64,000 bases of DNA from Escherichia coli (GTDB lineage Bacteria; Pseudomonadota; Gammaproteobacteria; Enterobacterales; Enterobacteriaceae): the NCBI RefSeq assembly GCF_016026235.1, contig NZ_CP065613.1; one strand, written 5' to 3'. The position numbers and the translations under genes are program-made. Below the pieces are notes generated by a model, which did no database searches, was not told the origin of the DNA, and saw nothing but the letters and a program-made list of their open reading frames with translations. Of the stretch, positions 36,433 through 37,510 are shown piece after piece; the stretch's first letter is position 1, and each line of letters starts with the position of its first letter.

Positions 36433-37510
36433 ACGCCACCGTGTACAGTTGTAAAAAAAAGAGGCACACCCAGATAAGTATGCCTGCCATCAGAACGTTA
36501 TCGATGTAATCTCATTATTTCATTAATAAGATTTTTTGAATAGTAGTTCTACGCAACAGATTAAATATGAACTATTTATTGTGCAGCTTTTCTACAAATC
36601 ATTTTTAATGCGTGTTTTTATCTACATTGATGTGAAAAAATAAATATAAAAGCTATGAGCGACAGGTCGTGTGGGATGTGTGTTACGTCTAATGTTTTAG
36701 TTGTTTTTATTAGTTTGAGATATTTGACATTATTTCTTGCGAGAACGCTTTATTGTGTATCTAATTGATTTTTCTTTTGTTTTTGGTTGGTGAAATTATA
36801 AGGTAGAAGGTGAGATTAGTTTAATATCAATGATATGAATTTATAAATACATATTATTGCAAGGTGTTCTTTAATTTTCTGGTCGTGAGTAAACCATTGT
36901 TAATGAACTCTGCTAATAAATTAAAAATGTTCTTTTGAATAGCTTTTGTTTTTTTGTAAACCTCAGTTTGTTTATTTTGCATTCGTTTGCTGGAGAGTAT
37001 TTCAACAATTTTTATTTTTCGCATAAACTTATTAACAACTTTTTATTATCAATTGGAAATCAATGTAAACTAAAATGTTAGCGAAGCGATAATCTTGTGC
37101 TAAAAAATATTTAAGCATGATGATTAATTAAAGAAGAGTAAAAATAAATCACTGCTAATAAATTATACGAATCGTGTTTAAAGCTCCACGTTGTTTTGGT
37201 CTGACTTATTTTTGTCCTCGTTTCAAGAACCCTTTTCGTATATGCTAACCGTGAGCGGGAGTGAACAAGTCACCATAGCCAGGAACACTAGCGGCGTAAT
37301 TCTTAAGCTGAGTGGCATTTCACCTGCGGTTTATCAGTGCATTCATAGCACCTTCATCAGCCAGATTGAACGAGTCCGCTTAGAATTTGCTGGCGAGGTT
37401 GTCACTATGAAGCATGAGAGTTACCTCAGTGTTTATATAAGGATTCAGCCCCCCTCTCTGGAACGGTAACTCTCAATCTGATCGGTTCCTGCGTTAGTTC
37501 ACATCACGAC

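Follow-up and report, generated by a model that had tools for sequence, protein, structure and literature searches.

An AT-rich, non-coding leader upstream of a decayed ipbA (fimX) gene at the betA-side end of the Escherichia coli island PAI-X, with a repeated 14-mer of uncertain meaning

The locus and its island

The DNA considered here is the leader of ipbA, also called fimX and hbiF, in a window of 64 kb, by which we mean the whole stretch of E. coli DNA that was analysed. In uropathogenic E. coli (UPEC), FimX/IpbA is one of the accessory invertases that switch type 1 pili on, and it also controls hyxR, the gene of a LuxR-type regulator. The leader consists of 1078 bp of non-coding DNA between the ipbA start codon at 36432 and the betA stop at 37511 (Table 1). 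An AT-rich, ORF-poor leader had initially been annotated at 36433-37200; that it is non-coding is confirmed, but the real stretch is longer and extends to betA.

Alignment to K-12 gives matches at 30000-30353, on the ykgH side, and at 37406-38000, on the betA side, and K-12 has nothing between them, so that 30354-37405 is an island that interrupts the core genome between ykgH and betA, which is the placement of PAI-X. The first 973 bp of the leader (36433-37405) belong to this island and have no K-12 counterpart; homology to K-12 restarts at 37406. The proposal that the DNA is horizontally acquired thus stands, as 30354-37405 is an insertion relative to K-12 and the leader is far more AT-rich than its surroundings.

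The 2.6 kb surrounding the repeat discussed below are 99.8% identical to E. coli FDAARGOS_943. The RefSeq annotation of that genome lists, on the minus strand, betA, a frameshifted ipbA, an IS2-interrupted hyxR, a partial hyxA and more IS elements, and it names the ipbA product 'tyrosine-type DNA invertase IpbA (also known as HbiF and FimX)'. Annotated ipbA/hyxR loci share 94-99.8% DNA identity with the window locus, have the same gene order and adjoin betA. The intact ipbA ortholog reaches 250.8 bits with NF007370 (Fim-type tyrosine invertase, NCBIfam), for which the cut-off is 221, and the GerE helix-turn-helix domain of HyxR scores 27.8 bits against a Pfam cut-off of 23.5. The locus thus has the genes of PAI-X, a Fim-type invertase gene, ipbA, with the LuxR-type hyxR downstream, both of them disrupted here. 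Judged by its sequence, it is PAI-X (fimX-hyxRAB), an already published E. coli island that has been reported in UPEC (PMC3789825; PMC6083910) and is credited to Bateman & Seed 2012, following PMC6083910, PMC3789825 and PMC6458436. In the PAI-X literature other than the primary fimX/hyxS papers, we found no description of the leader of about 1 kb or of its 14-mer pair.

The copy in the window is decayed. One base has been lost from a run of eight T in ipbA (seen as A7 on the plus strand, 36085-36091), which shifts the reading frame, and hyxR is split by an IS2 element, beyond which its nucleotides 505-795 resume at 33971-33681. Because of the frameshift in the one gene and the insertion in the other, the window locus is non-functional. 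Strains in which the locus is intact include UTI89 and CFT073.

Table 1. Features of the ipbA leader and its neighbourhood. Positions are those of the window, except where the SE15 allele (L002) is named.
Feature	Position	Strand or orientation	Basis or remark
IS2 inside hyxR, 1331 bp, 5-bp target duplication	33972..35302	+	alignment; annotated in FDAARGOS_943
hyxR 5' part (nt 1-509), LuxR/GerE-type regulator	35303..35811	-	alignment
lone CTGACATTTTGA site, scar of excised hyxS	35842..35853	+	alignment to SE15
ipbA (= fimX = hbiF), tyrosine-type DNA invertase, pseudogene	35870..36432	-	alignment to the intact ipbA of allele L006
ipbA/fimX leader, AT-rich, non-coding, betA-side end of PAI-X	36433..37405	-	K-12 comparison, genome survey, ORF check
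conserved proximal leader, probable ipbA promoter and 5' UTR	36433..36620	-	pairwise difference in 13 alleles (see text)
stem-loop, 10 pairs, then CU8; resembles an intrinsic terminator or 5' UTR hairpin	36452..36485	-	terminator scan
candidate extended -10 element TGAAATAAT, best prediction	36522-36514	-	consensus match only, looser minus-strand scan
14-mer copy 1, CTGCTAATAAATTA	36910..36923	+	exact in 7 of 13 alleles; variable part of leader
14-mer copy 2, CTGCTAATAAATTA	37152..37165	+	exact in 12 of 13 alleles; conserved block 37060-37220
betA, choline dehydrogenase, core-genome neighbour, transcribed toward leader	37511..39181	-	
CTGACATTTTGA copy outside switch, hyxR side	L002 3540-3551	+	
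CTGACATTTTGA in left inverted repeat	L002 3553-3564	opposite	12+1+12 palindrome with the outside copy
CTGACATTTTGA in right inverted repeat	L002 3811-3822	+	

A distant-mode blastn search of 5426 complete E. coli genomes found the 973-bp part of the leader in 1894, each time as a single copy; K-12 lacks the island, as do 65% of E. coli genomes. No second copy near fimB, fimE or ipuA was found by blastn in the E. coli genomes, which leaves one leader site per genome. The leader is chromosomal and, in the searches made, confined to Escherichia. A plasmid origin was considered and rejected: the sole 'plasmid' matches are E. coli records of 1.2-4.9 Mb, presumably mislabelled chromosomes. A 28-nt pattern spanning the second copy of the 14-mer has zero matches in 100,044 species representatives, and a scan for the IpbA protein beyond E. 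coli returned Escherichia sp. MOD1-EC7003 alone, whose contig stops before that second copy.

The leader and its repeated 14-mer

The GC content of 36433-37200 is 28.5%, against 48.9% for the whole window, and the composition profile dips to 25-31% between about 36450 and 37200, reaching 25% at 36750-37199. The tail at 37200-37405 has normal GC yet is also non-coding. Within the AT-rich stretch the longest ORF has 56 aa, and no conserved ORF was found in an indel-rich alignment of 13 alleles, namely that of the window and 12 fetched ones chosen across the range of leader identity. An ORF of 92 aa at 37191-37469 has its variable sites distributed as 20/23/24 over codon positions 1/2/3 and is broken in other alleles. 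A hidden gene was rejected on the basis of the short ORFs in the AT-rich part and of the missing codon-position bias and disruption of the longer one, and so was the small 'hypothetical protein' that RefSeq places at about 36655-36810, which is frameshifted in many genomes. The leader is thus AT-rich and poor in ORFs, as initially annotated. No Rfam family was detected in it at an E-value of 1 or lower.

The window leader allele is a rare one: only 13 records lie above 95% identity to it, and the majority of all records fall at 81-92%. Among the 13 aligned alleles, the mean pairwise difference is 0.01-0.06 at 36433-36620, closest to ipbA, rises to 0.16-0.31 in the indel-rich part at 36700-36980, and is again 0.02-0.06 in a block of 160 bp at 37060-37220. 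The conservation of this last block, which surrounds the second 14-mer, is unusual for non-coding DNA. The proximal part is also conserved in MOD1-EC7003.

As it lies directly upstream of the recombinase gene, the leader is the natural site for the ipbA promoter, which is plausibly located within it and probably in the conserved proximal 190 bp. The best prediction there is the extended -10 candidate of Table 1. Promoter-like consensus matches are not enriched in the leader, with 4 found and 5.6 expected.

The proximal part also contains a stem-loop that ends about 20 nt ahead of the ipbA ATG. Its predicted folding energy is -12.9 to -14.8 kcal/mol, with a z-score of -2.2 to -3.2 (three alleles), and it is kept in all 13 alleles and in MOD1-EC7003. 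The single change in the stem, seen in L014 and L015, is one-sided and turns a U-G pair into C-G in the minus-strand RNA. Its G+C-containing stem stands directly before a U-run on the strand that would be transcribed, as in an intrinsic terminator or a 5' UTR attenuator. As the hairpin is too close to the ATG to leave space for a promoter, it must either be part of the ipbA 5' UTR or terminate transcripts coming from betA or from the AT-rich DNA.

The 14-mer CTGCTAATAAATTA occurs twice in direct orientation, 242 bp apart, at the very positions initially annotated. There is no third copy in the 64-kb window at up to one mismatch, and in SE15 none beyond the two orthologous sites, be it in hyxS, hyxR, hyxA, hyxB or the rest of the island. 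With up to three mismatches, the window contains 9 matches compared to 6.2 expected, which is not an enrichment. When the leader itself was subjected to 1000 dinucleotide-preserving shuffles, a direct repeat of at least 14 bp arose in 1.1% of them for the 768-bp region (36433-37200) and in 1.5% for the 973-bp region (36433-37405). In the whole window there is only one other non-REP repeat pair of at least 14 bp with its copies no more than 1 kb apart. The repeat is thus genuine and modestly beyond chance, and it becomes marginal when the 64 kb screened in the initial reading are taken into account. The claim that such a recurrence is unlikely by chance holds to the extent that the pair is somewhat rarer than in shuffled sequence, but it is weaker than was implied.

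The two copies differ in how well they are kept. Copy 1 has two mismatches in 6 of the 13 alleles, among them the common SE15/ST131-like type, and appears there as CTGCTCATAAATTT, CTACTCATAAATTA, CTGTTCATAAATTA or CTACCAATAAATTA. Copy 2 is nearly invariant, although its conservation is no higher than that of the surrounding 160 bp. The core ATAAATT is unvarying in both copies in all 13 alleles, even in the highly divergent L014 and L015, and it is also kept in copy 1 of MOD1-EC7003. Eight alleles have the copies 242 bp apart, three 241 bp, one 243 bp and one, that of O157:H7, 246 bp; in SE15 the distance stays at 242 bp through two compensating 1-bp indels.

Excision of the hyxS switch

Between ipbA and hyxR lies hyxS, a FimX-dependent invertible element that is reported to regulate hyxR (PMC6083910). 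In SE15 and most genomes the gap between the two genes measures 329 bp and contains hyxS with its 16-bp inverted repeats (L002 3552-3824). The element is absent from the window, and because of its excision the gap is here 58 bp. In SE15, CTGACATTTTGA is present three times, once outside the switch and once in each inverted repeat, and the window has a lone site. The window sequence at 35839-35863 aligns to both flanks of a 271-bp hyxS segment of SE15, and what the window lacks is exactly these 271 bp between directly oriented CTGACATTTTGA copies. The sequence of the excision junction is ACAAAACCTGACATTTTGAATCAGAAGG.

Among the 1889 genomes that bear the locus, 1784 have hyxS in one orientation, 17 have it inverted and 88 have it deleted; it is thus present in 1801. 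The inverted state was verified base by base in APEC O18. The excised allele occurs on at least four haplotype backgrounds, three of which are closer to an intact allele than to other excised ones: the window allele differs from its nearest intact relative, L004, by 34/2170, L006 from the same L004 by 35/2171, and L016 from L008 by 11/2176. The excised alleles L014, L017 and L018 constitute a separate, very divergent clade that has no close intact relative in the sample. MOD1-EC7003, the sole non-coli Escherichia found, is likewise excised at hyxS.

These data fit recurrent excision between directly repeated recombinase sites, which FimX may perform. The invertase would, in other words, excise its own switch by means of the third half-site, which would leave a heritable and irreversible 'locked' fusion operon of ipbA and hyxR. 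About 5% of the carriers have hyxS in the excised state. An alternative is that hyxS was lost by RecA-dependent or slippage deletion on the 12-bp repeat, and some lineages may be ancestrally switch-less.

The state of hyxS determines what the leader can serve. In most genomes it would normally serve ipbA only, since hyxR has its own invertible promoter in hyxS. In excised alleles hyxR starts 58 bp past the ipbA stop and can therefore be read only from the ipbA leader; most excised genomes have both genes annotated as intact, and PapRG-06-5 and clone D i14 are examples of excised strains whose genes are intact. Regarding the leader as the promoter region of a recombinase-LuxR operon, as was originally done, is thus fair for the excised strains, but not for the 1801 of 1889 genomes in which hyxR has hyxS as its own promoter, and in the window both genes are dead.

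Interpretation of the repeat and comparison with known systems

The reading that we favour, with a probability of roughly one half, is that the region is the ipbA leader with a proximal promoter, embedded in AT-rich DNA coated by proteins of the H-NS type, and that the 14-mers are AT-rich sites of this kind. The conserved 190 bp next to the gene (36433-36620) would carry the promoter and a short 5' UTR with the stem-loop and its U-run. The rest of the leader, with about 72% A+T, would be xenogeneic DNA of the kind that is coated by nucleoid proteins such as H-NS, and it is indeed markedly AT-richer than the host genome and horizontally acquired. The two 14-mers would be nucleoid-protein-type sites with the invariant core ATAAATT, and neither operators of a dedicated regulator nor recombination sites nor the scar of a duplication. 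In most strains the leader would drive ipbA alone, with hyxR being read from hyxS.

The core ATAAATT is the same as positions 4-10 of TCGATAAATT, the nucleation motif of H-NS quoted in PMC7145609, a 7/10 match of a sort to be expected in any AT-rich DNA. Silencing of the leader by H-NS, which the initial annotation had considered probable, is plausible in view of the base composition and this match. Four observations go against the favoured reading. The promoter-like matches in the leader are not enriched (4 versus 5.6 expected), an exact pair arises in only about 1% of shuffles, a purely non-specific reading does not predict a spacing of 242 bp in 8 of 13 alleles or the compensating indels of SE15, and copy 2 lies in the unusually conserved distal block.

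It is possible, albeit on the unlikely side, that the pair has no function at all and is a chance repeat in low-complexity AT-rich DNA, its exactness being an accident of the window allele. The two mismatches of copy 1 in 6 of 13 alleles would be natural in that case, as would the occurrence of repeats of this length in 1.1-1.5% of the shuffles of one region when 64 kb were screened, the lack of enrichment at up to three mismatches, and the fact that copy 2 is no better kept than the 160 bp around it. What chance does not account for is the invariance of ATAAATT in both copies, even where copy 1 sits in the segment of the leader that varies most and in the very divergent L014 and L015, and the rarity of such pairs, only two non-REP ones within 1 kb being present in the whole window. 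A functional explanation at the other extreme is that a specific regulator uses the 14-mers as operators and loops out the intervening 242 bp to control ipbA, an arrangement that we take to be similar to the distant NanR and NagC sites upstream of fimB. This we consider rather improbable. The repeat does exceed local chance, 12 of 13 alleles have the copies 241-243 bp apart, with 242 bp held in SE15 by the compensating indels, a distance of 242 bp, about 23 helical turns, would let the two copies face the same side of the helix, and copy 2 is nearly invariant and lies in a block whose conservation is without explanation. On the other hand, about half of the alleles have a degenerate copy 1 although their ipbA is intact, the O157:H7 spacing is 246 bp, neither the island nor hyxS nor the window holds another copy, and no candidate regulator is known. 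For the original suggestion of repeated regulator sites, this means that the excess over local chance stands, but the exactness of copy 1 in only 7 of 13 alleles, the spacing of 241-246 bp and the missing further copies do not agree with it. The more far-reaching proposal, that a looping regulator at the 14-mers sets the level of FimX and hence the switching of both fimS (type 1 pili) and hyxS, is more doubtful again; if true, it would represent a new input to UPEC phase variation.

Two further explanations involve rearrangement of the DNA, and both are very hard to maintain. The initial annotation had offered the remnant of a duplication as an option, and an origin by tandem duplication of 242 bp is suggested by the presence of two identical 14-mers in direct orientation. 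However, the flanks of the two copies diverge immediately, and the best 60-bp window at offset 242 has 33/60 matches compared to 31-35 at unrelated offsets, so that the likeness is confined to the 14-mer itself and we regard this origin as highly improbable. The leader was also examined as a recombination element because the neighbouring gene encodes an invertase; it would then hold either deletion sites, in the form of the 14-mers, or a second invertible switch of ipbA. An inverted repeat of 25 nt with 80% complementarity (36585-36609 / 36920-36944), which overlaps copy 1, could be taken in favour of the latter. Its distal arm is not conserved among the alleles, however, and its predicted inversion junction occurs in 0 of 5426 genomes. 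No genome has the predicted junction of a 242-bp deletion between the 14-mers, the leader has no hyxS-like half-site at up to three mismatches, and collinearity over at least 80% of its length is kept in 1888 of 1895 records. The known switch hyxS served as a positive control for the junction searches, in which it was seen both inverted (17 genomes) and excised (88). In addition, whole-genome sequencing upon FimX overexpression in UTI89 and CFT073 gave fimS, hyxS and ipuS as the only sites of inversion (PMC6458436). With no conserved inverted repeats, no orientation polymorphism and no deletion junction, both the invertible switch and the deletion sites were rejected, and there is next to no probability left for a recombination element of either type.

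The finding itself is ordinary: it concerns the AT-rich, intergenic terminus of an island that is already known, present here as a decayed copy, and a short repeat of uncertain meaning. To what can be learned about the locus, the 14-mer repeat in this decayed copy contributes little. A map of the leader, consisting of the conserved proximal 190 bp, the hairpin with its U-run, the variable middle and the conserved distal block, could help specialists in phase variation, since the setting of FimX expression is poorly known. The more useful by-product is the precise excision of hyxS in 88 of 1889 genomes and on several haplotype backgrounds, which suggests that recombination between directly oriented half-sites can repeatedly remove an invertible promoter.

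Several known systems are relevant for comparison. Upstream of fimB there is a long AT-rich regulatory region (nanC-fimB) with distant NanR, NagC and IHF sites, and the ipbA leader is comparable in role, with about 1 kb of non-coding DNA before the gene of a Fim-type tyrosine invertase, where remote sites could influence the promoter. There is, however, no sequence similarity between the two regions, and blastn places the leader nowhere near fimB. With H-NS-silenced xenogeneic promoters the leader shares the horizontal acquisition, a GC content of 28.5% amid about 49%, and the 7/10 match at ATAAATT. A difference is that the PAI-X genes are reported to be expressed in a commensal E. coli strain and, according to the transcriptome, to be strongly up-regulated in its Kapi1 lysogens (PMC12922286). 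The agreement with PAI-X covers the position next to betA and the gene order, and the difference lies in the decay of the window copy, which has lost hyxS by excision, carries a frameshift in ipbA and an IS2 within hyxR, and has additional IS elements upstream. With the fimS, hyxS and ipuS switches, finally, the leader has in common a neighbouring gene of the Fim invertase family, a high AT content and a size of the order of a few hundred bp, but those elements have the conserved inverted repeats and orientation variants that the leader lacks. The real switch of this locus is hyxS, which belongs on the opposite side of ipbA from the leader and has been deleted in the window.

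Excision of the hyxS promoter

Comparison with the corresponding region of strain SE15 (locus L002) shows that the FimX-dependent invertible promoter hyxS has been precisely excised from the window, by recombination between two copies of CTGACATTTTGA in direct orientation. This sequence is present three times in SE15, where two of the copies form a 12+1+12 palindrome. As a result of the excision, hyxR lies 58 bp behind ipbA and is left with no switchable promoter of its own. Among 5426 genomes, hyxS was found in one orientation in 1784, inverted in 17 and excised in 88; the excised allele is carried by at least four haplotype backgrounds, and also by Escherichia sp. 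MOD1-EC7003.

One inverted case is the locus of E. coli APEC O18 (L019). Its ipbA is annotated with 16 additional codons, since an insertion of 1 nt close to the 3' end of the gene moves the stop codon into the switch region. The longer reading frame is unrelated to the inversion itself.

Coordinates of the features discussed
Feature	Sequence	Position	Strand
Site of hyxS excision	window	35842-35853	
hyxS region compared	L002	3537-3824	
Inverted hyxS	L019	2337-2948	
T8 run of ipbA, shortened by one base	window	36085-36091	
IS2	window	33972-35302	
Conserved stem-loop with U-run	window	36452-36485	minus
Nearly invariant block	window	37060-37220	
Extra bases near betA end	L014	~2324-2412	
GGAAGCGCCGTCATTA repeat	window	17271-17286, 18249-18264	
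REP-like tandem repeats	window	55514-55772	

Repeated decay of ipbA and hyxR

In the window both genes are disrupted. The invertase gene ipbA is inactivated by the loss of one base from a T8 run, a slippage-prone homopolymer, while hyxR is split by an IS2 element flanked by a 5-bp target duplication. Pseudogenes of ipbA or hyxR have arisen independently in O157:H7 (L013), strain 317 (L008) and A16 (L005, with IS903B), and the locus therefore decays repeatedly.

The leader upstream of ipbA

Among the 13 aligned leader alleles, a block of ca 160 bp, located 630-790 bp upstream of ipbA and containing the second copy of the 14-mer, is nearly invariant (pairwise difference 0.02-0.06). The DNA that separates this block from the promoter-proximal part, in contrast, differs by as much as 31%. 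A very divergent allele (81% identical) occurs in E. coli GPEC60-33-648 (L014) and at two further comparison loci, L017 and L018; all three also have some 90 additional bases close to where the island borders betA, and hyxS was in the excised form in every case seen.

Elsewhere in the whole window, the sole other non-REP repeat of at least 14 nt within 1 kb is the 16-nt exact direct repeat GGAAGCGCCGTCATTA, with copies 978 bp apart. The window also has a cluster of REP-like tandem repeats (GCCGGATGCGGCGTGAACGCCTTATCCGGCCTAC) whose period is 93 bp; this is presumably a BIME/REP array.

Closer to the gene, ca 20 nt upstream of the ipbA start codon, there is a 10-pair stem-loop, adjoined by a homopolymer run of 6 to 8 nt depending on the allele. 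With its U-run, the stem-loop resembles an intrinsic terminator or attenuator within the 5' UTR.
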